Assembly (NCBI GenBank): GCA_023700825.1 | Contig: JAMPYE010000003.1 | Span: 1 to 36,178 of the forward strand | Reading direction: 5' to 3' | Length of the DNA: 36,178 nt | DNA from: Thermoanaerobaculia bacterium | Lineage (GTDB): Bacteria > Acidobacteriota > Thermoanaerobaculia > Gp7-AA8 | Shown here: piece after piece, positions 1 to 36,094 of the stretch | How the letters are laid out: each line of letters starts with the position of its first letter | Position numbering within the stretch: the stretch's first letter is position 1 | The notes under the pieces: model-generated | The model's input: the letters and a program-made list of their open reading frames with translations, nothing else | Told to the model about the DNA's origin: nothing | Database searches by the model: none | Program-made: the position numbers and the translations under genes

Positions 1-1692
1 GACCCGTTCGGATTCATGCACGAGAATCCGCCCGACACGGCCTCGGTCGTCTGGGATCTCGACTACACCTGGAACGACTCGGCCTGGATGGAACGCCGTG
101 CGGCGTCGGCGCCGCTCAACGAGCCGATGTCGATCTACGAGATCCACCTCGGGTCGTGGAGGCGCGTGCCGGAGGAAGGGGAGCGGTTCCTGACCTACCG
201 CGAGCTCGCCGAAGCGCTCCCCGCCTACGTGAAGCAGATGGGGTTCACGCACGTCGAGTTCATGCCGGTCATGGAGCATCCTTTCTACGGGTCGTGGGGC
301 TACCAGGCGACCGGTTTCTTCGCGCCGACGAGCCGCTTCGGCACGCCGCAGGATCTGATGTACCTCGTCGACCGGCTCCACCAGGAAGGGATCGGCGTGA
401 TCCTCGACTGGGTGCCGTCGCACTTCCCGACCGACGGACACGCGCTGGCCTACTTCGACGGCACGCACCTGTTCGAGCCGGCCGATCCGCGGCGCGGTTT
501 CCATCCCGACTGGAAGAGCATGATCTTCGACTACGGCCGGCCCGAGGTCTGCTCGTTCCTCACGAGCAGCGCGGTCCACTGGCTCGAGAATTTCCACGCC
601 GACGTCCTGCGCGTCGACGCCGTGGCGTCGATGCTGTATCTCGACTACTCGCGCCCCGCGGGGCAATGGATCCCCAACAAGTACGGCGGACGGGAGTACC
701 TCGAGGCGATCACGTTCCTCCGGAAGCTGAACGAGGCCGTCTACGCCGAGATCCCCGGCGCGCAGACGATCGCCGAGGAGTCGACGGCGTGGCCGCACGT
801 GTCGAAGCCGACCTACGTCGGCGGGCTCGGGTTCGGCTTCAAGTGGGACATGGGCTGGATGCACGACACGCTGAAGTACATGGCGGAAGACCCGATCGCC
901 CGCAAGTATCACCACAGCAAGCTGACCTTCAGGCAGATCTACGCGACGAGCGAGAACTTCGTGCTGTCGCTCTCGCACGACGAGGTCGTGCACATGAAGG
1001 GGTCGCTGCTCGGCAAGATGCCGGGTGACAAGTGGAAGAAGCTCGCGAACCTGCGCCTGCTCTACTCGTGGATGTACGCGCAGTCGGGCAAGAAACTCCT
1101 CTTCATGGGCAGCGAGATCGCTCAGTCGCGCGAGTGGAACCACGACGAGAGTCTCGACTGGCATCTGCTCGAGGATCCGGGTCACGCCGGCGTCCAGCGA
1201 TTCGTGCAGGATCTGAACGCGCTCTACCGCTCGCAACGCGCGCTGTGGGAGATGGACACGCTGCCGCAGGGCTTCGAATGGATCGACTGCAACGACTGGG
1301 AGCAGAGCATCGTAGCGGTGATGCGCCGCGGGGAGACGCAGGGCGAGGAGATCATCGCGGTGCTGAACTTCACGCCGGTCGTCCGCTACGACTACCGGGT
1401 CGGCGCGCCTCGCGCCGGAACGTGGACAGAAATCCTCAACAGCGACGCCGACACCTACGGCGGCAGCGGCATCGGGAACATGGGATCCGTCGTCGCGACC
1501 GAGCAGGCGCATCACGGGCGGCCGGCGTCGATGAGCGTGACGCTTCCGCCGCTCGGCGCCGTGTTCTTCAGAAATTTCGAGCCGATGCCGGAGGATGAGC
1601 GGGGACCGTTCGGACCCTCGTCGGAAGGCGGGCCGGAAGCTCCGGCGAGGCCGGCGAAGAGAGGGGCGAAGAAACCCTCGAAGAAGAAGTAG
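1..1692 (+). CDS. glgB: 1,4-alpha-glucan branching enzyme (GH13), 5'-truncated by the window edge
   Basis: Frame is open from base 1 (DPFGFMHE...). GH13 branching-enzyme motifs [30 protein letters not shown] (nucleophile), IAEES (acid/base), [13 protein letters not shown]. Confidence 0.97.
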
Positions 1693-11108: not shown

Positions 11109-11273
11109 CAGTTCTGCAGTGTAAAGCTTACCGCGCCTTTTGCCGGAATCGTTGTGACTCGCGACACCTTTACCGACCTGGCAACCACGCCCGATGCGCG
11201 CATCGTCTTGACTCGCCACTGAATACGAAGTAATGGTGCGATCGTTTCAACGACCCAACCAAAGGGAGTAGAC

Positions 11274-16481: not shown

Positions 16482-16496
16482 CGGAGGGTTCCCCCC

Positions 16497-19020: not shown

Positions 19021-19025
19021 GTCCG

Positions 19026-19664
19026 ATGACATTCCGCCACACCATCGCGCGACGGTTCGTGCTCGCGTTGACGCTGCTCATGCTCGTGCTTCCCCTCGCG
19101 GCGCAGGCGCCCGAGCGGTCGGACGAGATCAAGTCGCCCGATCCGAAGTGGGTCGTCGGCGATCCCGCGGGCCCGCCGCGGACGGGTGTAGAGCTCGAGA
19201 AAGAAACCGCGCGTGTCGCGAGCCTTCTGCGCTGCCCGGTCTGCCAGGGGCTCTCCGTCAACGACTCGCCTGCCACGATGGCGCAGAACATGAAGCGCCA
19301 GGTGCGCGACCTCGTGGCGAAGGGCTACTCCGAAGAGCAGGCACTGCTCTATTTCGAGCGCGCCTACGGAGAGTTCGTGCGCCTCGAGCCGCCGCTCCGC
19401 GGGGTGAACTGGCTCGTCTGGGCCGCGCCCGTCGCGCTGCTCGTCATCGGGGGGTTCTTCGTTCTCTTCATGATGAAGCGGCTGCAACGAGCACCGAAGA
19501 ATGTCGAGGTCGCGAGCGTCGACTCGGCGACGCCGGGTCGTGACACGCTTCCCGACGACGAGCATCTTGCGCACTACGTGCTTCGCACGCGCGAGCTGGC
19601 CTATGGCTGGCCGGGCGGGCTCTCGCCCGCGTCGCGCGGCGAGGGCGGGGAGGAGTCGCGATGA
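19026..19664 (+). CDS. ccmH: Cytochrome c biogenesis protein CcmH (CycL)
   Basis: Signal peptide, LRCPVCQG motif, YGEFV, C-terminal TM. Confidence 0.92.
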   Translation: MTFRHTIARRFVLALTLLMLVLPLAAQAPERSDEIKSPDPKWVVGDPAGPPRTGVELEKETARVASLLRCPVCQGLSVNDSPATMAQNMKRQVRDLVAKGYSEEQALLYFERAYGEFVRLEPPLRGVNWLVWAAPVALLVIGGFFVLFMMKRLQRAPKNVEVASVDSATPGRDTLPDDEHLAHYVLRTRELAYGWPGGLSPASRGEGGEESR

Positions 19665-21210: not shown

Positions 21211-22512
21211 ATGGATAACTCGCTGCAGGGTAATCTCGGTCATTTCTCTCTCCATGACGTTCTTCGCTTCCTCGCGGACGGAGGACGTACGGGAACGATG
21301 AAGCTCACCAGCGGCGGCCGCGAAGCCATCGCGTGGCTCGACGGAGGCGCGATCGTCTTCGCCTGGTCCAACCAGGAGCAGATGCGGATGCCGCTCGTGC
21401 TGGCGCGGCGCGGAAAGCTGACGAAGGATCAGCGCGCACGGCTCGAGGAGCTCGCCAAACAGGAAGGCGAGCGCTTCGCGCAGGCGGCGATCAAGCAGGG
21501 TGTGTTCAAGGCCGATCAACTCCGCGACCTTTCCGCGGAGTACGTCGCCGAAGTGATGATCGACGCTCTCCTCTGGGACGGCGGTTCGTTCGGATTCTCG
21601 GTCGAGCTGGCGCTTCCCGACTCGGCGGTTCCGGTGCTGCTCAAGGTCGACGATCTGCTCGAGCGCGGCGCGAAGCGCGAGGCCGAGTGGGCGGAGTGCC
21701 GCAAGCTCTTCCCGAACCCCGCTCAGGCCTTCCAGGTCATGGGCGACCCCGAGGCCGACGAGAAGATCACGCTCAGCGTCACGCAGTTCAAGACGCTGCT
21801 CAAGATCAAGGAACTCGGCGCCGCGAGCGTCGAACAACTCTGCCTGATGCTCGACCGCGATCCTCTCGAGACCTACCGGACCATGGACGGCCTCCGCACT
21901 GCGGGGCTGATCGTCGAATCGTCGGCGCCCGTTGCCGTCGCGACTGCGCCAGCCGTCAGGCCGGTGCCTCCTCCACCGGCTCCCGCTCCTCCCGTCGTCG
22001 CCGCGCCCCCCCCGCCGCCGCCGGCACCGGAGCTCGAGAGCGAGGACGATGTCCCGACGGCAGTCGCGGACTGGCGTGATCAGGTCGCGCATCCCGCACC
22101 CGATGCCGCTGGCATTCCGGAACCGGAGCCGACTGTTGCCACGCCGCTGGCTTCGTTCCGTCCCGCGCCGGAGCCGTCGATCGAGTCGCTCATCGGAGTG
22201 CTCACGCTCGACAATGCCGACAAGACTTCGTTCCCTCTTTTCGAGACGGAACACTCGGTCGGACGCGAGGCGAACAACTCGATTCAGGTTCCCGACTCGA
22301 GCGTCTCGGGGGCGCACGCACGGATCCGGAAGACGCCCGAGGGATATCTGCTCGAGGATCTGAACAGCCGAAACGGAACGTACGTGAACGGCGAACGGAT
22401 TCAGACCCGCCTGCTTCGGAACGACGACAAGATCCGTCTCGGCAAGGTCCACATGGTGTTCAACCTGCCGACTCAGATGCAGCCGCCGAAGACGACGGCC
22501 CCGGGCGACTAG
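21211..22512 (+). CDS. DUF4388 (PATAN-like) domain, Pro-rich linker and C-terminal FHA domain
   Basis: N-terminus LQGNLGHFSLHDVLRFL...RTGTMKL...GAIVFA...WDGGSFGF. FHA residues VGR, VSGAHA and DLNSRNGTYVNG are intact. Confidence 0.88.
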   Translation: MDNSLQGNLGHFSLHDVLRFLADGGRTGTMKLTSGGREAIAWLDGGAIVFAWSNQEQMRMPLVLARRGKLTKDQRARLEELAKQEGERFAQAAIKQGVFKADQLRDLSAEYVAEVMIDALLWDGGSFGFSVELALPDSAVPVLLKVDDLLERGAKREAEWAECRKLFPNPAQAFQVMGDPEADEKITLSVTQFKTLLKIKELGAASVEQLCLMLDRDPLETYRTMDGLRTAGLIVESSAPVAVATAPAVRPVPPPPAPAPPVVAAPPPPPPAPELESEDDVPTAVADWRDQVAHPAPDAAGIPEPEPTVATPLASFRPAPEPSIESLIGVLTLDNADKTSFPLFETEHSVGREANNSIQVPDSSVSGAHARIRKTPEGYLLEDLNSRNGTYVNGERIQTRLLRNDDKIRLGKVHMVFNLPTQMQPPKTTAPGD

Positions 22513-22759: not shown

Positions 22760-25159
22760 ATGAGCTCACGCCAGAGATTTGATCTCATCATCGTCGGCTC
22801 GGGCCCCGCGGGTATTGCAACCGCGTCGCACGCGCACGACAACGGCATCAACTACGTGCTTCTCGAGAAGACTGACCATCTCTCGGACACGATCTTCTGC
22901 TATCAGGCACGCAAGTACGTCATGGCGGAGCCGATGGCGATCCCCGCGCGCGGCGACGTGCCGTTCGAAGCGGGATCCCGCGAGCAGATTCTCGGAGCAT
23001 GGGAATCGCACGCGAAGAACAAGCAGCTGAAGGTCGAGTACAACAAGGAAGTCAAGTCGGTGAAGAAGGTCGGCGCGACCTTCGAGGTCAAGGCCGCCGA
23101 CGGCAGCGAGTACGAAGGCAAGTGGGTCGTGCTCGCGATGGGAACGCAGGGATCGCAGCGCAAGCCCGGGTGCCCCGGCGAGGACATGTCGCACGTCCTC
23201 TATCGCCTCGCGGATCCTTCCGAATACGCCGAGAAGGACATCATCGTCGTCGGCGCCGGCGATTCCGCGATCGAGATCGCTGTCGCGCTGGCCGACGAGA
23301 ACCGCGTGAGCCTCGTCGTGCGCTCGGCGGAAATCGTCCGTGCGAAGGACAGTCTCATTCGCGAGGTGCTCACGCGGCAGGCGCAGGGCAGCATGACGGT
23401 CTACTACGGCACGACGCTGAAGGAGATCACCCTCGGCCATACCGACCTGAACGTGCGCGGAGAGACCGTTCGCGTTCGGAGCGACTACATCTTCCTGAAG
23501 CTCGGAGCCGACGCGCCCCGGAAGTTTTTCGAGTCGATCGGCGTGAAGTACACGAGTTCCGACAAGGACGCGCGTCCTTCGCTGACGCCGCAGTACGAGT
23601 CGGTCGACGTTCCTGGGCTGTTCCTGATCGGCGCCGCGAGCGGTCGCGACCTGGTCAAGCTCGGCATGAACCAGGGGTGGGAAGTCGTCGAGCATCTCTG
23701 CGGACGCAAGGTCGATCCGGCCGACGAGGCCGTGCTCAAGGAGCGGCTGCCGCACTGGAGCGGTTCCGTCGTCGAGCGAATGCAGCAGATCAAGCAGCGC
23801 GTGCCGCTGCTGGCCGCGGCCGACGACGAGAATCTCCGCGAGATGTTCCTCTCGACGAACGTGCGTGAATACCGCGACGGCGAGGCGATCATCCGCCAGA
23901 ACGACTACACGAACGAGTTTCTCATCATCGCCGAGGGGCGCGTGCAGCTCTGGGTCTCTCCGGAGGGATCGAAGGAGCAGCGGAAGATCACGACGATGAC
24001 CGCGGGGAACTTCTTCGGCGAGATGAGCCTGATCTCCGGCCGCCGCCGCACGGCAACGGCGATCGCGGAAGGACCCACGCGGATCATCGAGGTTCCGCGC
24101 AAGGCGATTCTCAAGCTGCTCGTCACGTCGCCGCGAGTGAAGGATCTCGTCGACCAGGCGTTCCTGATCCGCGCGATCCAGGGATATCTCTTCGGCGACA
24201 CGCCCGCGACGGTGCTGGGCGAGCTCGCCGCCAAGGCGACGATGATCACGCTCGCCAAGGATGCACCGGTGTTCAAGGAAGGCGATCCGGGCGACGCGTT
24301 CTACCTGATCCGCAACGGCATGGTGAAGATCGGCAAGACTTCGAACGACAAGGAGATCGTCCTTTCGTATCTCGTCGCCGGCAACTTCTTCGGCGAGTCG
24401 GCGCTGCTCGAGGGCGCGCCGCGCACCGCGACCGTGACGACGATCTTCCCGTCGGAGCTGATCAAGCTTTCGAAGCGGGACTTCGACCAGTTCCTCGACA
24501 GTCAGCCCGAACTGAGGAAGAAGCTGCTCAAGAAGCTCGAAGACCGGCGCGTGCTCAGCCTCATCGCCGAGGCGACGCCGGGGTCGGGGAGCATCCTGAA
24601 CGACCTGATCCGCGAAGAGGTCGTCATGGGAACGCACTCGCTGATCATCGACAACCACAAGTGCGTGCGGTGCAGCAACTGCATCCGCGCGTGCGAGGGG
24701 GTCCACGCCGACGGGCAGTCGCGCCTCTCGCTCACGGGCATCCAGCTCTACAACCTGCTCGCGCCGAACTCGTGCTGGCAGTGCCAGAACCCGATGTGCA
24801 TGCTCGACTGTCCGCCCGACGCGCTCACGCGCGACCCGCGCGGCGAGGTCTACATCCGCAGCAACTGCATCGGCTGCGGCAACTGCGAGAGGAACTGCCC
24901 GTACGGCAACATCTTCATGGTGCATCCGAAGCATGAAGGCGGCGGTCTGTTCGGCTGGATCAAGGGACTCTTCAGCAAGGAGAAGGCGGCGCACGACGAG
25001 GTCGAACGCACGCTGGCGGTCAAGTGCGACCTCTGCCGCGAGATCAGCGGCGGGCCGGCGTGTGTTCGCAGCTGTCCCACGGGCGCCGCGGTCCGGCTCA
25101 CTCCCGAGGAATACCGGGGCACACTCGAGGAACTGGTCATCATGAGAGGAGAGCGTTAG
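22760..25159 (+). CDS. Fusion of TrxR-fold FAD/NAD(P)H oxidoreductase, two cNMP-binding domains and a 4x[4Fe-4S] DmsB/NrfC-like domain
   Basis: IIVGSGPAG and VVGAGDSA dinucleotide motifs. cNMP cassettes FFGEMSL...RTATA and FFGESAL...RTATV. Cys groups CVRCSNCIRAC, CWQCQNPMCMLDCP, CIGCGNCERNCP and CDLC-x8-CVRSCP (16 Cys). Confidence 0.92.
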   Translation: MSSRQRFDLIIVGSGPAGIATASHAHDNGINYVLLEKTDHLSDTIFCYQARKYVMAEPMAIPARGDVPFEAGSREQILGAWESHAKNKQLKVEYNKEVKSVKKVGATFEVKAADGSEYEGKWVVLAMGTQGSQRKPGCPGEDMSHVLYRLADPSEYAEKDIIVVGAGDSAIEIAVALADENRVSLVVRSAEIVRAKDSLIREVLTRQAQGSMTVYYGTTLKEITLGHTDLNVRGETVRVRSDYIFLKLGADAPRKFFESIGVKYTSSDKDARPSLTPQYESVDVPGLFLIGAASGRDLVKLGMNQGWEVVEHLCGRKVDPADEAVLKERLPHWSGSVVERMQQIKQRVPLLAAADDENLREMFLSTNVREYRDGEAIIRQNDYTNEFLIIAEGRVQLWVSPEGSKEQRKITTMTAGNFFGEMSLISGRRRTATAIAEGPTRIIEVPRKAILKLLVTSPRVKDLVDQAFLIRAIQGYLFGDTPATVLGELAAKATMITLAKDAPVFKEGDPGDAFYLIRNGMVKIGKTSNDKEIVLSYLVAGNFFGESALLEGAPRTATVTTIFPSELIKLSKRDFDQFLDSQPELRKKLLKKLEDRRVLSLIAEATPGSGSILNDLIREEVVMGTHSLIIDNHKCVRCSNCIRACEGVHADGQSRLSLTGIQLYNLLAPNSCWQCQNPMCMLDCPPDALTRDPRGEVYIRSNCIGCGNCERNCPYGNIFMVHPKHEGGGLFGWIKGLFSKEKAAHDEVERTLAVKCDLCREISGGPACVRSCPTGAAVRLTPEEYRGTLEELVIMRGER

Positions 25160-25161
25160 GC

Positions 25162-25992
25162 GTGCCAATCCCGCGTTACGGTGTCCGCTGGCGCATCATC
25201 GCCCTCGTTCTGACGATCGGGCTCGTCGCGTCGTACGTCTGGTACCAGGGGCGCGAGCCGTTCACTCACGGTGGAACGCCGACGGGCCTCATCTACGGCT
25301 TCGTCGCCCTCTTCATGATGGGGTTCCTGCTTTATTTCGGCATCCGGAAGCGCGCCTACCGCAGTCGCTTCGGCACCCTGCAGGAGTGGTTGCACGCACA
25401 CATCTGGCTCGGTCTCTTCAGTTTCTTCGTGATCGTGGCCCATACCGGCCTCCGCTTTCAGGACAAGATTGCCGTGGCGCTCTTCGTGGTGATCGTCGGG
25501 GTGATCGCCACGGGCATCTTTGGGGCGCTGCTCTACAAGACGATTCCGAGAGAGCTGACGGAGATCCAGTCGAACCTCACGGGGCAGGAGATCTCCGACC
25601 AGCTCAATCAGCTTTCGAAGGCGATGGCGCGAATCGCGTCGGGCAAGTCGTCGCCGTTCCAGAGGATCTACTACAGTCTCCAGCGCGAGGCGATGCCGGG
25701 ATTCCTGGCGGGCTGGAAGCTCATCCTCTCGAGCGGCAAGCGGAACGAGAAGGCGGGAGACTGGACCGGCCTGGTCGGGATGGTCGAGAAGAGCGAGCAA
25801 GACGAGCTTCGTCAGTTGCTCGTCGCCTCGCGCCAGCAGAAGGAGCTGCATCTTCGCCTCGTCTACCAGCAGCGCTACCGCAACATTCTCGATTTCTGGC
25901 TCTACCTGCACATTCCCCTGTCGGTTGCGATGATCGTGCTGATCTTCGCGCACGTGTGGGGTGTCTTCTACTACGGCGTGGTCAAGTTCTGA
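25162..25992 (+). CDS. Inner-membrane protein, probable di-heme cytochrome b (ferric-reductase-like TM domain), 276 aa
   Basis: GTG lies 2 nt after the upstream stop. About 5 TM helices, two of which carry His pairs spaced i/i+14: HIWLGLFSFFVIVAH and HIPLSVAMIVLIFAH. Confidence 0.75.
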   Translation: MPIPRYGVRWRIIALVLTIGLVASYVWYQGREPFTHGGTPTGLIYGFVALFMMGFLLYFGIRKRAYRSRFGTLQEWLHAHIWLGLFSFFVIVAHTGLRFQDKIAVALFVVIVGVIATGIFGALLYKTIPRELTEIQSNLTGQEISDQLNQLSKAMARIASGKSSPFQRIYYSLQREAMPGFLAGWKLILSSGKRNEKAGDWTGLVGMVEKSEQDELRQLLVASRQQKELHLRLVYQQRYRNILDFWLYLHIPLSVAMIVLIFAHVWGVFYYGVVKF

Positions 25993-26035
25993 GGACGCGA
26001 GCCCCGCGAGACGGCTCGACGAGATACGGCGAACG

Positions 26036-28435
26036 ATGAGCTTCATCATTCAGAGGATCGAAGGCTCCAAGGTCATTCTTCGGGAGCACAAGGGCTCGAC
26101 GCTGCGGATCGGACGCGGCACGGATGCGCAGCTCCGATCGGAGAATCCGGTCGTTGCCCTCGAACACGCCATCATCGAGGCGCTCGAGTCGGGCTACGAC
26201 ATCGTCGACCGCGGCAGCATCACCGGCACCTACCTGAACGGCAGGACGATCGAGTCGAGCCGGCTCGGCAAGGGTGACGAGATCGAGATCGGCGACCTTC
26301 GGATCACGGTGCAGTCCGCCGACGCGGGCCGGCCGCTCTTCATCCGCGTCGAGGAGACCGACGAGGAGAGCGCCGCCGACGAGGACATTCCGGTGCCCGT
26401 GGGCACCGTCGCTCTCCCTCGGCCCGCTCCCGGAGGCGTGCTCAAGGCGCCGCGCGTCGACTACGTCGCGTCGTATCAGCTGCAGCGGAAGTTCCTCTCG
26501 AAGACCGTCGTGGCGTGGATGGCGATTCTCGTCGCTCTCACGACGCTCGGACTCGTCACCGTCGGCAACCAGCAGGTGGCGTTCCGCCCCGGCAAACTCT
26601 CCGTCGCGCACACCCAGGCCGCGGTCGAAGGCGTGCGACTGATCGGCGAGAGCAACTGCAGCGCGTGCCACGCGCCGTGGGGCGGCGCGACCGACGAGAA
26701 GTGCCAGGCATGTCACAAGCAGGCCGGTCACCAGGAAGGCCTCGCGCAGGTTGGCGCATGCACGGCGTGCCACACCGAGCACCGCCAGCTCGCGAATCTC
26801 GGCGAGGTCTATCAGCGCGAGTGCCTCGCGTGCCACAAGGAACTGCAGCCCGATCCCGGCAAGACGCTTCGCGTCGCGAAGAACATCACTGCGTTCGAGA
26901 AGGACCATCCCGAGTTCAAGCTCACCATCCTCGCCGGCGGCAAGGAGACGAAGGTCAGCCTGAGCGACCCGAAGGGTCGTTCGGCCGACGCCAATCGCTT
27001 CAAGTTCAACCACCAGTGCCACGTCGTCGGCACCTGCAACAAGCGACCCCCGACGATCGAGAACCCGGTCCAGGAAGTCGAGAAGCTGACGTGCGACTCG
27101 TGCCACAAGGTTCAGGGCGACACGGGCATCATCGACGACCGCTCGTACGACAAGTACTGTGCGCGCTGCCACCCTCTCACCTTCGACAACCGCTTCCCGC
27201 CGGTTCCTCACCATCTGAACCTGCAGACCGTCGCCGGCTACATCGCCAACGCCTACTCTGGAAACCAGAACATCCTGAAGATGAGCGCCGAGGAAGTCAC
27301 TCGCGTCTTCGCGTCGGGCTCGTCGAACCAGATCAACGTGGGAAGCGAGATCGTCCGCAGCGCGCAGCGAACGGTGCAGGCGCGATGCAAGGTCTGCCAC
27401 GACTTTCAGCCTAACGGGGAGGCCGTGCGTCCGCCGACCAAGTCGAACCGCTGGTTCAAGGGCCAGCGCGTCTTCGACCACGGCAAGCACCTCAACGAGA
27501 GCGTCAAGACCAAGTGCATCGACTGCCACGAAGGCGTGGTCGAGAGCAAGAAGACGTCCGACGTCAACATGCCGGGCATCAAGACCTGCGTCGGCTGCCA
27601 CAAGGCGGCGAGCGAGTACAAGGACAAGGGCATCGAGACGTGCCAGACGTGCCACGCGTACCACTCGCTGACGGTGTCGCAGGGAGCGGGTTGGACGCTC
27701 AAGGCCTCCGTCATTCCTGCGGAGATGCGACTCATCGCGCTCGGAGGCAAGTCGGAGTCGCAGCAACCCGGCAAGCCGGCGACGAACCGCTTCGCGGTAC
27801 CCCTTTGGGCGGCGTTCGCCGTGCCGATCGGCCTGGTCGTGCTCATCGGAGTCGTCGGCGGGTTGCTCGGCGCGATCCGTGCGCGCGCCGCCGCTCCGAC
27901 TCCTCCTCCCGCGCCGCCCAAGCCCAAGGGCGGAGCGCCGAAGCCCGCACCTTCCGCCGCGCCCGCTGCGCCCCCGAAACCCGCAGCCCCGAAACCTGCT
28001 GCGCCTAAACCGAAGCCGGCGCCCCCGCCTCCTCCCGTTCTTCCCGAGAGCACGGTGGCGATGGATCTCTCCGAAGTGAAGCGTACGGTCGCGGAGGCGC
28101 TGCCGGCGGGACCGACGGTGAATGCCGAGTACTTCGGCAGAATCGCCTTCACCGGAGGGAAGTTGTCGGGACAGAGCTTCACGATCGATCCCGACAAGGG
28201 TCTCTTCATCGGACGAGACCGCGAGGTCGCGAGCGTCGTGATCGATGACTCCCGCATCTCGAGACGCCACACGTGGGTCGGCGTTAGGGACGGCAAGGTC
28301 GTCGTGGTCGATCAGAAATCGACCAACGGCACGTACCTGGAGTCGACTCAGAACCGGATCACCGAGGCGGAGTTGAAGGAAGGCGCAGTCGTGATTCTCG
28401 GGGAGAACGCGGCGAGTTTCAGGTATGAGCGCTGA
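26036..28435 (+). CDS. FHA - TM - decaheme cytochrome c - TM - Pro-rich linker - FHA, 799 aa
   Basis: Ten CxxCH motifs (CSACH, CQACH, CTACH, CLACH, CDSCH, CARCH, CKVCH, CIDCH, CVGCH, CQTCH) between two hydrophobic helices. FHA motifs at both ends (IGR...HA...GTYLNG; IGR...SRRH...STNGT). Confidence 0.92.
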   Translation: MSFIIQRIEGSKVILREHKGSTLRIGRGTDAQLRSENPVVALEHAIIEALESGYDIVDRGSITGTYLNGRTIESSRLGKGDEIEIGDLRITVQSADAGRPLFIRVEETDEESAADEDIPVPVGTVALPRPAPGGVLKAPRVDYVASYQLQRKFLSKTVVAWMAILVALTTLGLVTVGNQQVAFRPGKLSVAHTQAAVEGVRLIGESNCSACHAPWGGATDEKCQACHKQAGHQEGLAQVGACTACHTEHRQLANLGEVYQRECLACHKELQPDPGKTLRVAKNITAFEKDHPEFKLTILAGGKETKVSLSDPKGRSADANRFKFNHQCHVVGTCNKRPPTIENPVQEVEKLTCDSCHKVQGDTGIIDDRSYDKYCARCHPLTFDNRFPPVPHHLNLQTVAGYIANAYSGNQNILKMSAEEVTRVFASGSSNQINVGSEIVRSAQRTVQARCKVCHDFQPNGEAVRPPTKSNRWFKGQRVFDHGKHLNESVKTKCIDCHEGVVESKKTSDVNMPGIKTCVGCHKAASEYKDKGIETCQTCHAYHSLTVSQGAGWTLKASVIPAEMRLIALGGKSESQQPGKPATNRFAVPLWAAFAVPIGLVVLIGVVGGLLGAIRARAAAPTPPPAPPKPKGGAPKPAPSAAPAAPPKPAAPKPAAPKPKPAPPPPPVLPESTVAMDLSEVKRTVAEALPAGPTVNAEYFGRIAFTGGKLSGQSFTIDPDKGLFIGRDREVASVVIDDSRISRRHTWVGVRDGKVVVVDQKSTNGTYLESTQNRITEAELKEGAVVILGENAASFRYER

Positions 28436-28499: not shown

Positions 28500-30269
28500 A
28501 TGAGCCCAAGAGCCTTGCATCGTGGGGTAGTACGCCGTTTTCTGCTCATTTTCACGATATCCCTGCTGGTCGGCGCGGGCGCAGCGCTGGCGCAGCCGAC
28601 TCCTCCCGACTGCGCGGGAGTCGACGTCGTCGGTTCTCCCTGTCGCGACGGGCGCCCCGGGGGGATCGAGGCGGCGGAGGGATCGTTCCTTCCGCTCAAC
28701 GCCGACGAGGTGAGAAGCCTGGCGGTGACGGCGTCGGTTCTGATCGACGATCCGAAGATCACCGTGGCGGTGGTCGATCGGGCAGGCAGGGTTCTCGCGA
28801 TCGTGAGAAATCCCGAGGCCGACCCCGCGAACGACGAGTTGGCAGTGGGCGTCGCGCGCACGTCAGCGTTCTTCAGCCACAACACCGCGCCGCTCTCGTC
28901 GCGCACCGTGCGTTTCATCAGCAGCCTGCACTTCCCACCTGGCGTGAAGAAGGCCTACGAGAACGCGCTGTACGGGATCGAGAACACCAATCGCGGCTGC
29001 GACTTCAACCTTCAGTTCAACGCGGGAAAGTGCATTCCCCGCGCGACTTCCGTCGTCAATGCCGGACCCTGCAACGGGCTCGACAACTCCGGCTGCGGGC
29101 CGGGGATCGTGACGGGCAAGCCGCAGCCGTTCGATCAGCACGAGGACGGGAAGCACCCGGCGCCGATCGGACTGCAGGGACCCTTCAACCCGGGCGGTCT
29201 GCCGGTCAATGCGGGCGGCATTCCGCTCTACCGCATCGGCAGTTTCGAGATTCTCAAGGGAAGCCTCGCCGAGGGCAATGCGAAGGTCGAAGTCGAAGGG
29301 CCCAGCTACATGGTCGGAGCCATCGGAGTCGCGGGCGTGTCGTCGGACCACGCGGAGTTCGCGGCGTTCGGCGCGGCCGCGCTCGGAGTCCCCGGGGTCA
29401 TCTTCCCGGCTCCGTCGTTCCCCGAACTGCCGCGGCCCGGGCGAGTCATCATCGACGGAATCCGCCTTCCTTTCGTCGACCAGGGGTTTCGTCCGAAAGG
29501 CACGAGGCAGGCGGCGGCGGCTTCGGGGACGTTCATCGTCGGTCCGAATCCCGGAGGGTGCGTCGGCAACCGTTATCTCGCCGGGCCGATCGGATCGCCC
29601 GAGCTGAGCCGTGACGAGGTGGACGGGATCATTCGCCGCAGCGTCGCGACCGCGCAGAAGACGCGCGGATACATCCGCCTTCCGCTGAACTCCTACTCGC
29701 GGATGGTCATCGCCGTCTCCGACCTGAACGGCAACATCCTCGGGCTCTATCGCATGCCGGACGCGACGATCTTCTCGATCGACGTCGCGGTGGCGAAGGC
29801 TCGCAACGTCGTCTACTTCAGCGGCGCAGGAAACTCGGATCTGCCCGGCGTGCCGGTGGGTACCGCGGTCAACGCCCGCACGCTCGGTTATGCCGGCTCC
29901 CCGCTCTTCCCGGGTGGCATCGATTTCACGGACCCGGGGCCGTTCTTCGACATCTTCCTCAACGACCTCGCCAACGCCTGTTCACAGGGGTTCCAGGCGC
30001 CTAACGCCAACCAGAACGGGATCGTCTTCTTCCCGGGCTCGACGCCGCTCTATCGGAACGGGGTTCTGGTCGGTGGCCTCGGGATTTCCGGGGACGGCGT
30101 CGACCAGGACGATTACGTGACGCTCAAAGGAGCAGCAGAGTTCTACCCCGATCCCTCGATCTGGGCCGATCGCGTGAAGATCGACGGAGTCCGACTGCCG
30201 TACCTCCACCTTCCCCGCCAGCCGGAAGGCGTAACCGAGAAATTCATTGAGCCCTTCGATGAGCCATAG
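28500..30269 (+). CDS. Exported protein with two GlcG/HbpS-like heme-binding domains
   Basis: Signal peptide ending ALA-Q. Domain 1: VAVVDRAG...ART...GGIPLY...VGAIGVAG. Domain 2: IAVSDLNG...AVAKARN...PGSTPLY...VGGLGISG. Confidence 0.82.
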   Translation: MSPRALHRGVVRRFLLIFTISLLVGAGAALAQPTPPDCAGVDVVGSPCRDGRPGGIEAAEGSFLPLNADEVRSLAVTASVLIDDPKITVAVVDRAGRVLAIVRNPEADPANDELAVGVARTSAFFSHNTAPLSSRTVRFISSLHFPPGVKKAYENALYGIENTNRGCDFNLQFNAGKCIPRATSVVNAGPCNGLDNSGCGPGIVTGKPQPFDQHEDGKHPAPIGLQGPFNPGGLPVNAGGIPLYRIGSFEILKGSLAEGNAKVEVEGPSYMVGAIGVAGVSSDHAEFAAFGAAALGVPGVIFPAPSFPELPRPGRVIIDGIRLPFVDQGFRPKGTRQAAAASGTFIVGPNPGGCVGNRYLAGPIGSPELSRDEVDGIIRRSVATAQKTRGYIRLPLNSYSRMVIAVSDLNGNILGLYRMPDATIFSIDVAVAKARNVVYFSGAGNSDLPGVPVGTAVNARTLGYAGSPLFPGGIDFTDPGPFFDIFLNDLANACSQGFQAPNANQNGIVFFPGSTPLYRNGVLVGGLGISGDGVDQDDYVTLKGAAEFYPDPSIWADRVKIDGVRLPYLHLPRQPEGVTEKFIEPFDEP

Positions 30270-32298
30270 AACGAACGCACTCGCTCTTGCCGCGGCGGTT
30301 CTGATCGCCGTGGCCGCGCTCGGCGCGCACGCCGAGGATCTGACGCTGACGATCGGGGTGTCGGCAGACACGCCGGTCTACGCACACACCGCGAGGCCGG
30401 AGATCGCCGGCTCGACGAACGCCCCGCCCGGTTCGGTCGTCGCCATCACGATCGACGGACAGACGCAGAACGCGCAGGTCGGCGAGGACGGCAAGTTCTC
30501 CGTCGAATGGGGCATCGACCTCGAGGTCGGGTCGCACCTGGTCAGCGCGAGCGTTTCGACTGCCGACGGCCGGAGCGCGAAGGCCGAGCAGGATCTTCGC
30601 GTCGACCTCGAAGAGTTCATGCCGCGCCAGCCGATCGAGCCGCTTCTGATTCCGGAGCCGCTCCCGCGGATCGTCCCGAACATCGAGGACTTCGCCGCGT
30701 ACACCGACCGCTGGCAGATCTCCCCGCCGGCCGACTACGAGTTGCAGGTGTCCCCGCGAGGGAAGTGGGATCCGTACAACCAGAACATCCTCAAGGGAGA
30801 CAAGCCTCGCTTCGGCAAGGACATCTTCCTGAACCTGACCGGAATCTCCGACTTCCTCGTCGAGATCCGCGACCTGCCGACGCCCACGGGCATCTCGACC
30901 GACGACCCGACCTCGTTCCCGTTCTTCGGTGACAGCGAGCAGGTCGTCATGAACCAGAACGTCGTGATGACCGCGGACCTCTACAAGGGCCTGACCACCT
31001 TCCGCCCCGCGACGTGGCGTGCCCGCGCCACCCTGGTGGGCAACGTGAACCACGTGATTCTGCAAGAGGCGAACGCCGTGAACATCGACGTGCGAGAGGG
31101 GACCGATCGCACGGATGGAACCTTCGCCGTGCAGGAGCTCTTCTACGAACGCAAGCTCGCCGACCTGACTGAGAGCTTCGACTTCATGTCGATCCGCGCC
31201 GGGGTGCAGAGTTTCGTCAGCGACTTCCGCGGCTTCATCTTCAACGACCAGAACCTCGGTGTCCGTTTCTTCGGCAACTGGGACGCGAACCGTTACCAGT
31301 ACAACGCGGCTTTCTTCGATCGTCTCGAGAAGGACACCAACAGCGGGCTCAACAAGGTGGAGCGGCGCGAGCAGCAGGTGTTCATCATGAACGCCTACCG
31401 GCAGGACACGTTCGTGCCGGGTTACACCACTCAGGTCAGCTTCCACTACCTCCACGACGATCCGTCGGTGTACTACGACAAGAACGGCTTTCTCGTGCGC
31501 CCTGCGCCGGTCGGTGACTTCGTGCCGCACGAAATCGACGCTTACTACCTCGGCTGGTCAGGGCTCGGCAAGGTCGACGTCTGGAACGTCGATCACGCGT
31601 TCTACTACGTTACCGGCAAGGACAGTCGTAGCCCGATCGCGGGCTCGGATCCGCTCGGCGGCGGAGTCGGCAACGACGGCGTCACGCCGGGTTCGGCCGA
31701 GGTCGACATCAACGGGTACATGGGCTTCGTCGAGATCTCGCGCGACTACGACTGGCTTCGCCCGAGGGCGGCGATCTTCTTCGCGTCGGGAGACGACGAC
31801 CTGTACGATCGCGACGCGGAAGGCTTCGACGCGGTCTTCTCTAACGTGAACGCGCTCGGCGGCGGCTTCAGCTTCTGGAACCGCCAGGGAATCCGTCTTC
31901 CTGGGACGGGCGTCGGCCTCACGCAGCGCGGAAGCCTCCTGGCCGACCTGACGAGCAGCAAGGACGAAGGGCAACCGGAGTTCGTGAACCCGGGCGTGCA
32001 GATCGCGAGCGTCGGACTCGACGTCGACGTCACCCCGAGGATCAAGGCGATCTTCACGACGAACTACATTCGCCTGGCCAAAACCGAGGTCGTCGAGGGC
32101 CTGATCTTCCAGGACGACGTCGACAAGGAGATGGGGCTCGACGTGAGCCTCGGCGTCCGTTACCGACCGTTCTTCTCGAACAACATGACCGTCCTCGGTG
32201 GCGCGGCGATGTTCGCGCCTGGCTCGGGCTGGGAAGACATCTACGAAGACGACGATCTGCACTGGCAATTCTTCACGACACTGACTCTGCAGTTCTGA
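30259..32298 (+). CDS. Outer-membrane beta-barrel protein with N-terminal Ig-like domain, 679 aa
   Basis: Signal peptide (AHA-E). Bacterial Ig-like segment (PEIAGST...GSVVAITIDG...VGEDGKFSV). Many amphipathic strands and C-terminal BAM-type signal FFTTLTLQF. Overlaps the upstream stop. Confidence 0.8.
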   Translation: MSHRTNALALAAAVLIAVAALGAHAEDLTLTIGVSADTPVYAHTARPEIAGSTNAPPGSVVAITIDGQTQNAQVGEDGKFSVEWGIDLEVGSHLVSASVSTADGRSAKAEQDLRVDLEEFMPRQPIEPLLIPEPLPRIVPNIEDFAAYTDRWQISPPADYELQVSPRGKWDPYNQNILKGDKPRFGKDIFLNLTGISDFLVEIRDLPTPTGISTDDPTSFPFFGDSEQVVMNQNVVMTADLYKGLTTFRPATWRARATLVGNVNHVILQEANAVNIDVREGTDRTDGTFAVQELFYERKLADLTESFDFMSIRAGVQSFVSDFRGFIFNDQNLGVRFFGNWDANRYQYNAAFFDRLEKDTNSGLNKVERREQQVFIMNAYRQDTFVPGYTTQVSFHYLHDDPSVYYDKNGFLVRPAPVGDFVPHEIDAYYLGWSGLGKVDVWNVDHAFYYVTGKDSRSPIAGSDPLGGGVGNDGVTPGSAEVDINGYMGFVEISRDYDWLRPRAAIFFASGDDDLYDRDAEGFDAVFSNVNALGGGFSFWNRQGIRLPGTGVGLTQRGSLLADLTSSKDEGQPEFVNPGVQIASVGLDVDVTPRIKAIFTTNYIRLAKTEVVEGLIFQDDVDKEMGLDVSLGVRYRPFFSNNMTVLGGAAMFAPGSGWEDIYEDDDLHWQFFTTLTLQF

Positions 32299-32314: not shown

Positions 32315-35300
32315 ATGACTCAAATGATCGGAAAACTGACCACCAATCCGCCGCGCGCCGCAATCGCGGTGATCGCCTTCGTCGCGATTCTCTGCCTGCC
32401 GGCGATCGTCACGTCGTCGACCAGCGGCACACAGGTCGACGCGACGACCGCGTTGATGTCCCAGACGCACGAGCAGGCGCTCGCGAAGAGCCGTTCATGC
32501 CTCGGCTGCCACGAAGGGATCGAGGACGCGCACGCCTCCGACGCCGTCAAGCTCGGCTGCACCGACTGTCACGGGGGTGACGCGAACGTCGCGGTCACGA
32601 AGGGATGGTCGCGCGAGTCGGCCGAGTACGAGCAGGCGATGAACTCGTCGCACGTGCTGCCCCGCCATCCGGAGAACTGGGTGCGCGACGGGCGGCGCAC
32701 GTCGTCGAATCCGACGAACTCTTACGTCGACCTGATGAAGGAGCCGGCGGAGTTCGTGAAGTTCATCAACCCCGGCGATCTCCGCGTCGCGCAGGAAGCG
32801 TGCGGCGGCTGCCACCAGAAGCAGGTCAACAACGTGCCGAAGAGCACGATGGCGACGGCACAGACGTTCTGGGCGGCCGCTTCGTACGCGAACGGAATCC
32901 TCGGTCTCAAGTACGGCATCCTCGGCGAGCACTACACCCGCGACGGCGAGCCGGGCATGATCAAGGAAACGCGCACGCTCACCGACGAAGAGAAAGCGCG
33001 TGGCGCACTTTCCGTGGCGCTGCCGCTTCCCCGCTGGGAGCTCATCCAGCCGGGTGAGTACTTCCGCGCGTTCGAGCGCGGCGGCATCGAGTCGGGGAAC
33101 ACGCCGCCTGAGCCAGGCAATCCGAACATCCTGGAGGAGGCGGGCAAGCCCGATCTCCGCCTGAGCAATCGGGGCCGCGGCACGGGCCTCCGCATCAGCC
33201 CCGCGCTGATCAACATTCACAAGACCCGACTCAACGATCCGCACCTGTCGTTCCTCGGTACGAACGACCACCCGGGCGACTATCGCTCTTCGGGTTGCAG
33301 CGCGTGCCACGTCGTCTACGCGAACGACCGCGATCCGTTTAACTCCGGCCCCTACGCGAAGTACGGCCACCAGGGGCTCAGCCAGACCGGCGACCCGACG
33401 ATTCCGAAGAACGAGAAGGGCCACCCGATCCGCCATCGCCTGAGCCGTGCGATTCCGACGGCGCAGTGCATGGTCTGCCACATGCATCAGCCTAACTCGT
33501 TCGTGAACACCTATCTCGGCTACACGATGTGGGAGAACGAGATCAACGCGGAGTTCATGTATCCGAAGAAACAGAAGTACCCGACGGCCGAGGAGGAGGA
33601 TGCGATTCACATCCACAATCCCGAAGGCTCGTCGGTGCGTGGGCTCTGGTCTGACACCGACTTCCTCGAAAAGGTCAGCGAGCTGAACCCGAAGCTCGAA
33701 GATGGCCAGTTCGCCGACTACCACGGCCACGGCTGGATCTTCAAGGCGATCTTCAAGAAGGACCGCAAGGGAAACCTGCTCGACAAGGACGACAACATCG
33801 TCTCGTTCGAGGACCCCGAGAAGTTCAAGAAGGCGGTCCACCTCAAGGACATCCACCTCGAGAAGGGGATGCACTGCGTCGACTGCCACTTCGAGGTCGA
33901 CAACCACGGCGACAGTTACCTCAAGAGCGAGTACGCGGAAACGATCGAGATCGACTGCGAGAACTGCCACGGCGACAACGACTCGTACGCGAACCTGCGC
34001 ACGACCGGTCCCGCCGCCCCCAAGGGGGGCACCGATCTGTCTCTCATGACGACATCGGGAGGACGCCGCCGCTTCGCCTGGATCGACGGCAAGCTCTTCC
34101 AGCGCTCGGTCGTCGACCCGACGCTCGAGTGGGAAGTCAGCCAGGTCAAAGACTCGATCACGCCTGGACATCCGCAGTACAACGAGAAGTCCCGTTACGC
34201 GAAGACGATCCAGAAGGACGGCTCCACATGGGGGCTCCCCGCCACGGCGGACAAGCTCGCGCACTCGAACCAGAAGATGTCGTGCTACACCTGCCACTCT
34301 TCGTGGATCACGTCGTGCTTCGGCTGCCACCTTCCGCAGAAGTCGAATCGGAAGACCGAAATGCAGCACTACGAGGGAACCGAGACGCGCAATTACGCGA
34401 GCTACAACCCGCAGGTAGTGCGCTCCGACGTCTACATGCTCGGCGTCCACGGCCGCGCGGAGAAGGGCAAGATTGCGCCGGTCCGTTCGTCGAGCGCGCT
34501 GATGCTGAGCTCGACGCAGTCGAACCGCCAGAAGATCTACAACCAGCAGACGACGATCTCGGCGCCGGGCTTCAACGGCCAGGCGTTCAACCCGCACGTT
34601 CCGCACACGGTGCGAACCAGGGAGACGAAGGGCTGCCCCGACTGTCACGTCTCCGAGGCGAACGACAACAACGCCTGGATGGCGCAGCTGCTGCTTCAGG
34701 GCACGAACTGGGTGAACTTCATCGGGAAGTACGCCTGGGTGGCGACCGGGGACGAAGGGATCGAAGCGATCCGCGTGACGGAGGATCCGGAGCCGCAGGC
34801 CGTCATCGGGAGCACGCTCCACAAGATCGTCTATCCCGATTACTACGCGAAGCACGAGAAGAACCACAAAGAACTCGAGGACGCGTATCACCATCACGGC
34901 CACGGGATCCGCAGCCTCCAGCAGCGGGGTGAGTATCTTTACGTCGCGAAGGGCCACGATGGCGTGCAGGTCTACGACATCGCGGTCGTCGACAATAAGG
35001 ACTACTCCGAGCGCTTCGTGAGCTCGCCGTTCACCAAGTACGGCCAGAACACGAAGATCAAGACGAAGTACGCGACGGCGATCGCATTGCCGACGAACAT
35101 GCCGATGGCGCCGCACCGCAAGCCGTTGCCGGGCGAGCAGCTGATCCACCCGACCTATTCGTACGCGTATATCAGCGACAAGGAAGAGGGCCTGATCCTC
35201 TTCAACTCGAACACCTTCACCGACGGCGATCCGCTCAACAACTTCATCGAGAGGGCGGTCACCTTCAACCCCGACGACGCGCTCCACGGAGCGATGAACC

Positions 35301-36094
35301 TGACCGTGGCGGGCAACTATGTGTACCTGGTGTGTGACCGGGGACTACAGATCATCGATGTCAACGATCCGCTCAAGCCGTCGATCATCGCAACGGTCCC
35401 GGAGATCAAGCATGGCACGGCGGTCGCCGTGCAGTTCCGGTACGCGTTCGTGACCGATGCCGACGGGCTGAAGGTCGTCGACATCACGACTCCGAGCCAG
35501 CCGCGCCTCGCCGCAACCGTGCCGCTCGAGGACGCGCGCAACGTCTACGTCGCGAGAACCTACGCGTACGTGGCGGGCGGCAAGCAGGGAATGGTGATCG
35601 TCGACGTGGAGAAGCCGGAGCAGCCGTTCGTCGACCAGGTGTACGACGCCGAGGGCGAGATGCACGGGGTCAATGACATCAAGGTGGGCTCCACGTCGTC
35701 GAGTCTCTACGCCTACGTCGGCGACGAGCACGGGCTTTTCGTCATCCAGCTGACGTCACCGAAGACGGTGCCTGGGTTCGAGGGCTTCTCGCCCCGTCCG
35801 GTCCCGAACCTCATCGCGAAGCGGCACACGCACTCGGCGGTGCTCGCGCTCTCGAAGGGGCTCGATCGCGACAGGGCTGCCGACGAGAGCGGGAACCAGA
35901 CGATCGTCTTCAACAGGCAGGGAGCCCGGCCGATGAACCTGACCGAGCTGCAGAGAATGTACCTGAGAGACGGCCGCCTCTGGACGGTCAAGGCGACGCC
36001 GCCAGGCCCGCCGATGGATCCGCCTCCGGTTGGCGAACAGGCAACGGCGACGCCTGCCCCGAATTCGGCCACCACGACGGGAGGCGGACGATGA
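32315..36094 (+). CDS. Exported decaheme cytochrome c fused to a C-terminal LVIVD-repeat beta-propeller, 1259 aa
   Basis: Ten CxxCH motifs (CLGCH, CTDCH, CGGCH, CSACH, CMVCH, CVDCH, CENCH, CYTCH, CFGCH, CPDCH). Repeats YVY...GLQIIDVNDP, YAFV...GLKVVDITTP and YAYV...GMVIVDVEKP. N-terminal hydrophobic signal. Confidence 0.92.
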   Translation: MTQMIGKLTTNPPRAAIAVIAFVAILCLPAIVTSSTSGTQVDATTALMSQTHEQALAKSRSCLGCHEGIEDAHASDAVKLGCTDCHGGDANVAVTKGWSRESAEYEQAMNSSHVLPRHPENWVRDGRRTSSNPTNSYVDLMKEPAEFVKFINPGDLRVAQEACGGCHQKQVNNVPKSTMATAQTFWAAASYANGILGLKYGILGEHYTRDGEPGMIKETRTLTDEEKARGALSVALPLPRWELIQPGEYFRAFERGGIESGNTPPEPGNPNILEEAGKPDLRLSNRGRGTGLRISPALINIHKTRLNDPHLSFLGTNDHPGDYRSSGCSACHVVYANDRDPFNSGPYAKYGHQGLSQTGDPTIPKNEKGHPIRHRLSRAIPTAQCMVCHMHQPNSFVNTYLGYTMWENEINAEFMYPKKQKYPTAEEEDAIHIHNPEGSSVRGLWSDTDFLEKVSELNPKLEDGQFADYHGHGWIFKAIFKKDRKGNLLDKDDNIVSFEDPEKFKKAVHLKDIHLEKGMHCVDCHFEVDNHGDSYLKSEYAETIEIDCENCHGDNDSYANLRTTGPAAPKGGTDLSLMTTSGGRRRFAWIDGKLFQRSVVDPTLEWEVSQVKDSITPGHPQYNEKSRYAKTIQKDGSTWGLPATADKLAHSNQKMSCYTCHSSWITSCFGCHLPQKSNRKTEMQHYEGTETRNYASYNPQVVRSDVYMLGVHGRAEKGKIAPVRSSSALMLSSTQSNRQKIYNQQTTISAPGFNGQAFNPHVPHTVRTRETKGCPDCHVSEANDNNAWMAQLLLQGTNWVNFIGKYAWVATGDEGIEAIRVTEDPEPQAVIGSTLHKIVYPDYYAKHEKNHKELEDAYHHHGHGIRSLQQRGEYLYVAKGHDGVQVYDIAVVDNKDYSERFVSSPFTKYGQNTKIKTKYATAIALPTNMPMAPHRKPLPGEQLIHPTYSYAYISDKEEGLILFNSNTFTDGDPLNNFIERAVTFNPDDALHGAMNLTVAGNYVYLVCDRGLQIIDVNDPLKPSIIATVPEIKHGTAVAVQFRYAFVTDADGLKVVDITTPSQPRLAATVPLEDARNVYVARTYAYVAGGKQGMVIVDVEKPEQPFVDQVYDAEGEMHGVNDIKVGSTSSSLYAYVGDEHGLFVIQLTSPKTVPGFEGFSPRPVPNLIAKRHTHSAVLALSKGLDRDRAADESGNQTIVFNRQGARPMNLTELQRMYLRDGRLWTVKATPPGPPMDPPPVGEQATATPAPNSATTTGGGR

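Follow-up and report, generated by a model that had tools for sequence, protein, structure and literature searches.

A decahaem cytochrome with an LVIVD propeller from a Thermoanaerobaculia bacterium, tentatively placed at the end of a PCC4/ptd-like electron chain of the envelope

When a large protein carries many c-type haems, is it an enzyme or a wire? The question is raised by a gene at the end of contig JAMPYE010000003.1 from a Thermoanaerobaculia bacterium (GenBank assembly GCA_023700825.1). The stretch of DNA that we analyzed, here called the window, is this entire contig of 36,178 bases (G+C 65%); the source genome is about 91% complete. The open reading frame at 32315–36094 on the forward strand encodes a product of 1259 amino acids, which we name P0001, a decahaem cytochrome fused to a beta-propeller. 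A sequence-only reading had proposed that it is catalytic rather than a wire. Our results support this proposal in part: it is plausible and has been somewhat strengthened. Our favoured but tentative placement of P0001 is as the terminal redox module of an envelope chain resembling the PCC4 and ptd gene clusters, and more probably as an oxidoreductase than as a passive wire. What speaks for an enzyme is the haem density, a weak fold match to 1sp3, local sequence similarity, conservation, spare histidines, the lack of a lipobox, the neighbouring barrel and the genomic context. The parts of the gene are as follows.

32315 to 36094, forward strand: P0001 gene, decahaem cytochrome/LVIVD propeller; ATG start, 1259 amino acids, ten CxxCH motifs, more than 7900 database homologues.
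32315 to 32434, forward strand: Sec-type signal peptide region, residues 1–40, with a hydrophobic segment at residues 15–33.
32435 to 34714, forward strand: cytochrome domain, residues 41–800, in which ten c-type haems are bound; mass 84.6 kDa, or 8.5 kDa per haem.
33200 to 33349, forward strand: most conserved block, residues 296–345, ending in the haem-4 motif C328–H332; a candidate active-site region.
33836 to 33979, forward strand: di-haem module, residues 508–555, with haems 6 and 7; no other stretch is clearly similar to known multihaem enzymes.
34715 to 35989, forward strand: LVIVD beta-propeller, residues 801–1225, of about seven blades (PF08309 at 72.2 bits, secondary structure of the model, Foldseek).
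35990 to 36094, forward strand: Pro/Thr/Ala-rich tail, residues 1226–1259, and stop codon, seen in the translation; tblastn matches in 80 related loci mostly end at about residues 1225–1235.

Haem motifs were counted by regular expression, and CxxCH, CxxCK, CX3CH and CX4CH were all tried on the whole protein. There are ten CxxCH motifs, starting at residues 62, 82, 163, 328, 385, 521, 548, 657, 668 and 774, and no CxxCK, CX3CH or CX4CH. From the first cysteine to the last histidine they span 717 residues (62–778), with haem-free gaps of 165 residues (C163 to C328) and 136 residues (C385 to C521). The sequence-only reading had put these values at about 720, 160 and 130, and its description of a fusion with LVIVD repeats is borne out too: the Pfam family PF08309 matches P0001 in three stretches with 72.2 bits, against a gathering cut-off of 20.2 bits. 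Residue conservation was measured on an alignment of 65 P0001 homologues, in which the cysteines and histidines of all ten motifs are retained in 98–100% of the sequences. Hence, the decahaem arrangement is real and selected, and not due to chance.

Four additional histidine clusters had also been pointed out. All of them are present, at residues 385 (CMVCHMH), 469 (YHGHG), 761 (HVPH) and 858 (YHHHGH), but conservation extends to only three: M390, H391, H470, H472 and H764 are kept in 100% of the homologues and H761 in 95%. In the fourth, H860 is kept in 89% and the remaining histidines in 14–48%, which makes the YHHHGH cluster appear lineage-specific. A metal-binding role for this cluster, which lies in a histidine-rich linker, was rejected because of its poor conservation, and no observation supports the related suggestion that the propeller is a metal-binding module.

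How densely the haems are packed provides a first indication of function. In the available part of a survey of solved multihaem cytochromes, proteins with less than 5 kDa per haem are electron carriers and proteins with more than 7 kDa per haem are catalytic (PMC7096707). At 8.5 kDa per haem for residues 41–800 (13.5 kDa for the mature protein), the haem domain of P0001 falls into what this source calls the 'peptide replete' catalytic class, and outside the range below 5 kDa in which wire cytochromes of the MtrA, STC and NrfB type are found. The earlier claim that low haem density indicates an enzyme therefore holds as a rule of thumb, but not without exception, since OmcS is a wire at 7.5 kDa per haem (PMC7096707, as far as available). 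P0001 could likewise be a non-catalytic electron-transfer head, an 'insulated' cytochrome like MtrC or OmcS, in which all haems are six-coordinate. It would take electrons from the chain and deliver them to a partner protein, to a shuttle or to an acceptor that is insoluble, and its propeller would anchor it to the barrel or to a surface. We consider this a credible explanation, though not the one we expect to be true. It fits a transfer head that some P0001 homologues carry precomputed Pfam matches to MtrC/MtrF domain II/IV. MtrC has a haem density similar to that of P0001.

The predicted fold points weakly in the other direction. An AlphaFold2 model of residues 41–1225, built with the 65-sequence alignment, reached a predicted local distance difference test score (pLDDT) of 81.5 and a predicted template modelling score (pTM) of 0.87. 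It contains a loop-rich mixed haem domain followed by an all-beta domain from about residue 800 to 1225, and in the propeller pLDDT is mostly above 90. We counted the blades by reading the DSSP string of the model, which shows six four-strand groups and a split seventh. Foldseek with the whole model returned propellers only and was uninformative for the haem part. The haem domain was therefore also modelled alone (residues 41–805; pLDDT 83.5, pTM 0.86) and compared with 48,161 representative PDB chains, in addition to a Foldseek run.

Only six of these chains reach a Z-score of at least 2. The top chain is 1sp3_A, the octahaem tetrathionate reductase (OTR) of Shewanella oneidensis, with Z 4.7, a root-mean-square deviation of 5.0 over 259 of 436 residues and 17% identity. 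Its alignment spans 30..755 of the model and 1..425 of the chain, and a second look confirmed it as the sole cytochrome among the six; the other five chains, with Z of 2.5 or less, are local matches only. Chains of MtrC, OmcA or OmcS did not reach Z 2 in this wide search, which argues against a transfer head but is not an exclusion. OTR and the P0001 model share a low content of secondary structure, a stretch rich in beta structure ahead of the last haem and the di-haem module. They differ in that OTR holds eight haems in about 440 residues and has no propeller, whereas P0001 has ten haems and a propeller. The active-site haem of OTR has a lysine ligand and an open sixth position.

Sequence comparisons, too, show similarity to multihaem enzymes, which is weak and local. 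When the P0001 family profile was run with HMMER against PDB sequences, it matched chains of the Thioalkalivibrio octahaem nitrite reductase (TvNiR) at E 2.5e-4, around haems 1–2 and haems 6–7; a PDB search with the P0001 sequence by itself gave NrfA, at E 0.52, together with a c555 construct and nothing else. Comparison by hhalign with an OTR-family profile, whose alignment was built from the OTR-like gene of the window's own genome, gave 95% probability and E 2.6e-8 over 46 columns in the module of haems 6 and 7, and detected no similarity outside these columns. In the haem part, Pfam reports only weak c3/c7 signatures at residues 511–562. TvNiR (2ot4) and NrfA (1qdb) resemble P0001 in that a central haem is preceded by long stretches free of haem. 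NrfA and the octahaem nitrite reductase have CxxCK at the catalytic haem, which P0001 lacks, and neither Pfam nor the PDB fold search reported a match to TvNiR or NrfA over the whole domain. The best family match of P0001 is to ExtM (NF040943) from a selenite/tellurite-reduction operon of Geobacter, at 93.9–98.3 bits in three to four stretches, far below the NCBIfam cut-off of 800 bits. ExtM is a model of 599 positions without a propeller, and its best stretch is again the module of haems 6 and 7.

The OTR-like gene just mentioned lies elsewhere in the genome (L082, contig C334:13-1365). It encodes an octahaem protein of 450 residues that matches TIGR04315 with 151.8 bits, below the cut-off of 375; its homologues carry PF11783, and close relatives occur in Geobacter-type bacteria.

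If P0001 is an enzyme, which haem would react? Mean identity in the alignment peaks at 0.83 for residues 291–340, around haem 4, compared with 0.33–0.70 elsewhere. At least 95% of the homologues keep K303, T304, R305, L306, D308, P309, G321, D322, R324, S326 and G327, followed by Y335, N337, D338 and R339. Haem 4 (C328–H332) lies in this most conserved block and would, judged by conservation, most likely be the reactive site. The invariant lysines include K199 and K303, and three methionines are conserved. Fourteen histidines outside the motifs are kept in at least 95% of the homologues, that is, four above the ten distal sites. One could argue that these residues favour a transfer head, because all motifs are canonical CxxCH and the conserved histidines suffice for bis-His ligation of ten haems. 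For a mere carrier, however, at least four surplus conserved histidines and an invariant charged block at haem 4 have no obvious role.

Residues 249–293, just before this block, have pLDDT below 50 in both AlphaFold2 runs despite conservation across phyla (identity 0.61 for residues 241–290). In the model this stretch would fit a loop that becomes ordered by haem or by a partner.

Where P0001 resides also bears on the choice. Its cluster resembles MtrCAB and the Pcc system (OmbB-OmaB-OmcB) in that a barrel gene lies beside genes for large multihaem cytochromes with ten haems. Surface lipoprotein cytochromes carry a lipobox cysteine. We judged signal peptides by reading the N-termini of 40 homologues: most are Sec-type, two have a cysteine at a lipobox-like place and no lipobox is conserved. 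P0001 thus differs from surface decahaem lipoproteins of the MtrC/OmcA type, which argues against a transfer head. A further difference is that electrons enter the MtrCAB and Pcc systems from quinol, whereas the chain of P0001 starts at NAD(P)H.

To describe this chain we turn to the neighbouring genes. A search of a collection with one genome per species found at least 599 stretches that match a search pattern, at least 585 of which encode a P0001 relative. The counts of neighbours below rest on 80 loci kept from these relatives. The proteins of the window were compared with them by tblastn, and many of the misses fall in loci that a contig end interrupts. The genes upstream of P0001, with the number of loci in which a homologue was found, are the following.

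30247 to 32298, forward strand: outer-membrane barrel protein of 683 amino acids with an N-terminal Ig-like domain, a signal peptide and C-terminal LTLQF; directly upstream of P0001; 75 of 80 loci.
28500 to 30269, forward strand: secreted tandem HbpS-like (DUF336) protein of 589 amino acids; PF03928 at E 2.3e-23 in two stretches; 65 of 80 loci.
25961 to 28435, forward strand: inner-membrane decahaem cytochrome; ten CxxCH at residues 233–561, transmembrane-like segments at 183–201 and 618–636; 59 of 80 loci.
25024 to 25992, forward strand: membrane protein with five hydrophobic, predicted transmembrane segments and two WX3HX13H motifs at residues 122–140 and 292–310; 56 of 80 loci.
22760 to 25159, forward strand: cytoplasmic fusion of 799 amino acids, pyridine-nucleotide oxidoreductase with two cyclic nucleotide monophosphate (cNMP)-binding domains and a 4Fe-4S ferredoxin; 59 of 80 loci.
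21211 to 22512, forward strand: DUF4388 and FHA protein between the ccm operon and the cluster; homologue in 4 of 80 loci.
13650 to 21097, forward strand: cytochrome c maturation genes ccmA, B, C, E, F, H and I (Pfam ABC_tran, CcmB, CcmE, CcmF_C, CcmH, CycH; ccmC has no Pfam match and is named by position).

The fusion protein matches Pyr_redox_3 at 2.3e-39, cNMP_binding at 1.5e-43 and several Fer4 families, including Fer4_11 (PF13247) at 6.6e-6. The five-transmembrane protein is probably a ferric-reductase-like protein with two b-type haems, as suggested by its histidine motifs, which recur in the Limnobacter homologue, and by a weak match to PF01794 (E 4e-4); the true start of its reading frame probably lies downstream of 25024. 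In the inner-membrane decahaem protein the ten CxxCH motifs lie between two transmembrane helices, and each cytoplasmic end bears an FHA domain (E 1.1e-24). P0001 relatives are followed by a gene for a c554-like tetrahaem protein of 444–492 amino acids. It occurs in 64 of the 80 loci, and among the 67 loci that extend far enough, 49 have its start within 1.5 kb downstream. The contig ends 84 bases past P0001, so that this gene is cut off here. Hydroxylamine oxidoreductase (HAO) pairs with cytochrome c554, and the position of the tetrahaem gene next to P0001 relatives recalls this pairing.

Several features of these genes may be recorded beside their role in the chain. The inner-membrane decahaem protein has a Pro/Ala/Lys-rich linker, and its Limnobacter homologue (L018:3042-4508, 488 amino acids) retains ten CxxCH motifs and has no FHA match. 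The tetrahaem protein after the Limnobacter P0001 homologue (L018:12736-14070) contains four CxxCH motifs and one CX4CH, and may bind five haems. A homologue of a CHASE2-adenylate/guanylate cyclase is found in 13 of the 80 loci and lies adjacent to the cluster in Limnobacter (L018:16567-18831). The ccmABCEFHI operon looks complete and directly precedes the cluster; a ccmI/CycH homologue is also encoded near the cluster in 11 of the 80 loci.

Clusters of this architecture have been described before, in two sources that were available in part. He, Barco, Emerson & Roden 2017 (PMC5566968) define PCC4 as a candidate cluster. Its porin is accompanied by three periplasmic cytochromes, which hold 4, 5 and 10 haems, and by a five-transmembrane protein in which the WX3HX13H motif occurs twice; an Fe-S gene (pfam13247) and further redox genes complete the set. 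The same architecture received the name ptdABCDEFG in a 2024 preprint (10.1101/2023.11.21.568154). In it, ptdA is a pentahaem protein with a beta-sandwich, ptdB a porin, ptdC an FAD/NAD(P) oxidoreductase, ptdD a tetrahaem protein, ptdE a cNMP/4Fe-4S protein, ptdF a ferric-reductase-like membrane protein and ptdG a decahaem protein. The porin-adjacent PtdA is assigned to the COG family of NrfA (10.1101/2023.11.21.568154). In their available parts, both sources describe these clusters from genomes and transcripts only.

As far as these sources can be compared, the cluster in the window has five of the seven ptd parts. Both have a porin beside a multihaem cytochrome, an oxidoreductase of the FAD/NAD(P) type, a 4Fe-4S protein that binds cNMP, a five-transmembrane ferric-reductase-like protein with two WX3HX13H motifs, a decahaem protein after it and, here in the relatives of the window, a tetrahaem protein. 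There are differences as well. In the window, a decahaem protein with an LVIVD propeller replaces the porin-adjacent pentahaem protein with a beta-sandwich, and a tandem HbpS-like protein is added. Oxidoreductase and cNMP/Fe-S protein are fused, whereas ptd has two genes, and the inner-membrane decahaem protein bears FHA domains, unlike that of ptd and PCC4. The haem counts in the window and its relatives are 10 (inner membrane), 10 (P0001) and 4, or 4 plus CX4CH, compared with 4, 5 and 10. The fourth transmembrane helix of the five-transmembrane protein differs, with TGxxG in place of the SGxxG in the logo of He et al. (PMC5566968). P0001 occupies the slot of PtdA, so the cluster is a variant and not the described PCC4 or ptd set; P0001 is an uncharacterised variant within a cluster type known only from genomics. 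Literature searches for LVIVD returned neither the PCC4 nor the ptd paper and no paper linking LVIVD with this cytochrome, and in the literature searched we found no experimental follow-up of PCC4 and no description of or experiment on P0001.

In which direction would electrons flow? Suppose that P0001 takes electrons from a donor that is external or periplasmic, Fe(II) or Mn(II) for example, and passes them on to the inner membrane. Such an inward chain has been drawn for PCC4 in iron oxidisers and in genomes from drinking-water filters (PMC5566968, in its available part), and one of our 80 loci (L046) is labelled as an uncultured Ferrovum metagenome-assembled genome (MAG). We nevertheless regard an inward chain as improbable. 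Its inner end would be an NAD(P)H-type flavoprotein with ferredoxin domains and a ferric-reductase-like di-haem b protein, an architecture of the outward type, and flow to NAD(P)+ would be uphill. Furthermore, Limnobacter, Fontimonas, Spectribacter and Undibacterium are not bacteria that we know as iron oxidisers. In NOX, FRE and MsrQ systems, NAD(P)H flavoproteins and ferric-reductase-like di-haem b proteins are associated with outward electron flow. Because the inner end of the cluster is built like these systems, the path is more likely to lead outward.

The oxidoreductase that we favour would then act at the end of the following chain. Cytoplasmic NAD(P)H would reduce the FAD/4Fe-4S protein, gated by a cyclic nucleotide. 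Electrons would cross the inner membrane through the ferric-reductase-like protein with its two b-type haems and enter the membrane-anchored decahaem protein, whose FHA domains suggest control by phosphothreonine. From there they would go on, probably through the c554-like tetrahaem protein, to the ten haems of P0001. A small oxidant would reach the reactive haem through the narrow, cognate outer-membrane barrel, while the propeller might serve, at a guess, for docking or for presenting the substrate. Distant relatives would suggest oxyanions of sulfur, nitrogen or Se/Te as substrates, which are likewise guesses. What the data show directly is the gene, its ten conserved haem sites, the fusion, the conserved neighbours and a weak resemblance to multihaem enzymes; which way electrons flow, that P0001 is periplasmic, which haem is catalytic and that the barrel acts as a channel are points that we infer. 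In this form, our tentative proposal is that P0001 may be a periplasmic terminal reductase, with haem 4 as the probable reactive haem and its substrate fed through the barrel. One could go further and see in P0001 the founder of an enzyme family of the HAO/OTR class, a periplasmic terminal reductase with a propeller, an NAD(P)H-fed, quinone-independent gated chain and a dedicated narrow channel; this is conceivable, but we are doubtful. If it were true, a quinone-independent pathway gated by cNMP and phosphothreonine would be an undescribed type of respiration or detoxification, spread over many phyla and hundreds of species, most of them aerobic.

The barrel is relevant to this choice as well. 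Seven of 43 barrel homologues match the Pfam family Alginate_exp, with a best E of 1.5e-5, and in a neighbour cluster from the Atlas 31% of the members carry this family; a Pfam scan of the barrel at 30247–32298 gave no match to the MtrB/PioB family. AlgE-type barrels are narrow channels of 18 strands, too small to sheath a cytochrome. The family matches hint at a narrow channel and not at a sheath around a cytochrome, and such hints of alginate export, rather than of an Mtr porin, do not fit well with a transfer head. A profile of the barrel alignment found no solved barrel in the PDB, only chance rows of bromodomains, and a crude count of amphipathic beta-strands in the alignment gave 10 to 29 segments, depending on the threshold, and was of no use. 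The prediction of a complex between barrel residues 126–683 and propeller residues 800–1225 gave no answer (score 0.00, without controls) and is evidence neither way.

A number of observations weigh against an enzyme and should be considered together. Given OmcS, haem density alone decides nothing. The fold match to 1sp3 is weak: a Z-score below 8 may reflect a mere common arrangement, and Foldseek, which also ranks 1sp3 first, gives it an E of 0.086 and finds nothing at E≤0.001. What the sequence has in common with enzymes is limited to a di-haem module of 46–56 residues, of a type that is also found in non-catalytic cytochromes. When the window's genome was searched with the OTR family model TIGR04315 at E≤10, seven places were hit, none of them within 32315–36094; a whole-enzyme family such as PF11783 is absent from both Pfam scans of P0001, and NCBIfam and Pfam at E≤10 offer no enzyme family beyond weak matches to ExtM, ExtN and HmcA. 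With ten canonical CxxCH motifs, 14 conserved histidines and three methionines, every haem could be six-coordinate. The cluster and the tetrahaem protein of its relatives together hold at least 24 c-type haem motifs plus a barrel, which is the make-up of electron conduits. It resembles porin-cytochrome systems, and in their available parts the PCC4 and ptd papers both read such clusters as porin-cytochrome complexes (PMC5566968; 10.1101/2023.11.21.568154). The hint of alginate export is limited to seven of 43 barrels, and the barrel profile found no solved counterpart.

How widespread is P0001? In a word-indexed database search, at least 7980 of the 8000 candidates scored match at E≤0.001. The best 120 matches are 56–94% identical, and every source name shown among them is "hypothetical protein". 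A full HMMER pass with residues 1–840 over representatives at 50% identity yielded 2757 proteins at E≤0.001, of which 526 reach E≤1e-30. The 80 loci are 48–88% identical to P0001 and are labelled as Acidobacteriota, Alpha-, Beta- and Gammaproteobacteria, Myxococcota, Nitrospirota, Ignavibacteria, Verrucomicrobia, Planctomycetes and Binatia, which cover at least eight phylum-level groups. The closest of the 80 (L001), labelled as a Thermoanaerobaculia MAG, is 88% identical over residues 1–1226. Within this class the distribution is patchy: the gene is present in 18 of 41 genomes, including 15 of 24 of the same family (the window's genome excluded) and none of 13 from ten class-level families.

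P0001 is the best-conserved member of its cluster, with about 50–62% identity in most loci compared with about 21–45% for its neighbours. In loci of other phyla identity is 48–62%, which is unusual for surface cytochromes and thus another point against a transfer head. One full cluster (L057, CAMCQE010000013.1) is labelled as a Klebsiella pneumoniae MAG yet resembles betaproteobacterial loci; the label may be an error of binning or naming.

The family is thus large and strongly conserved, and it is carried by cultured, tractable bacteria: among the 80 loci these are Limnobacter alexandrii, Fontimonas thermophila, two Spectribacter species and one Undibacterium. Given these hosts, a single purified protein would allow a direct test of enzyme versus wire. 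Should P0001 be an enzyme, a redox reaction that is common in soils, sediments and waters awaits assignment. If it is the head of a conduit, many aerobes export electrons from NAD(P)H.

Further upstream in the window, genes for a GAF-GGDEF protein (5476–7200, forward strand) and a PAS-GGDEF-EAL protein (9057–11219, reverse strand) flank a gamma-glutamyltranspeptidase gene (7197–8945). These two proteins belong to the turnover of cyclic di-GMP, and another PAS-GGDEF-EAL gene follows the cluster in locus L001.

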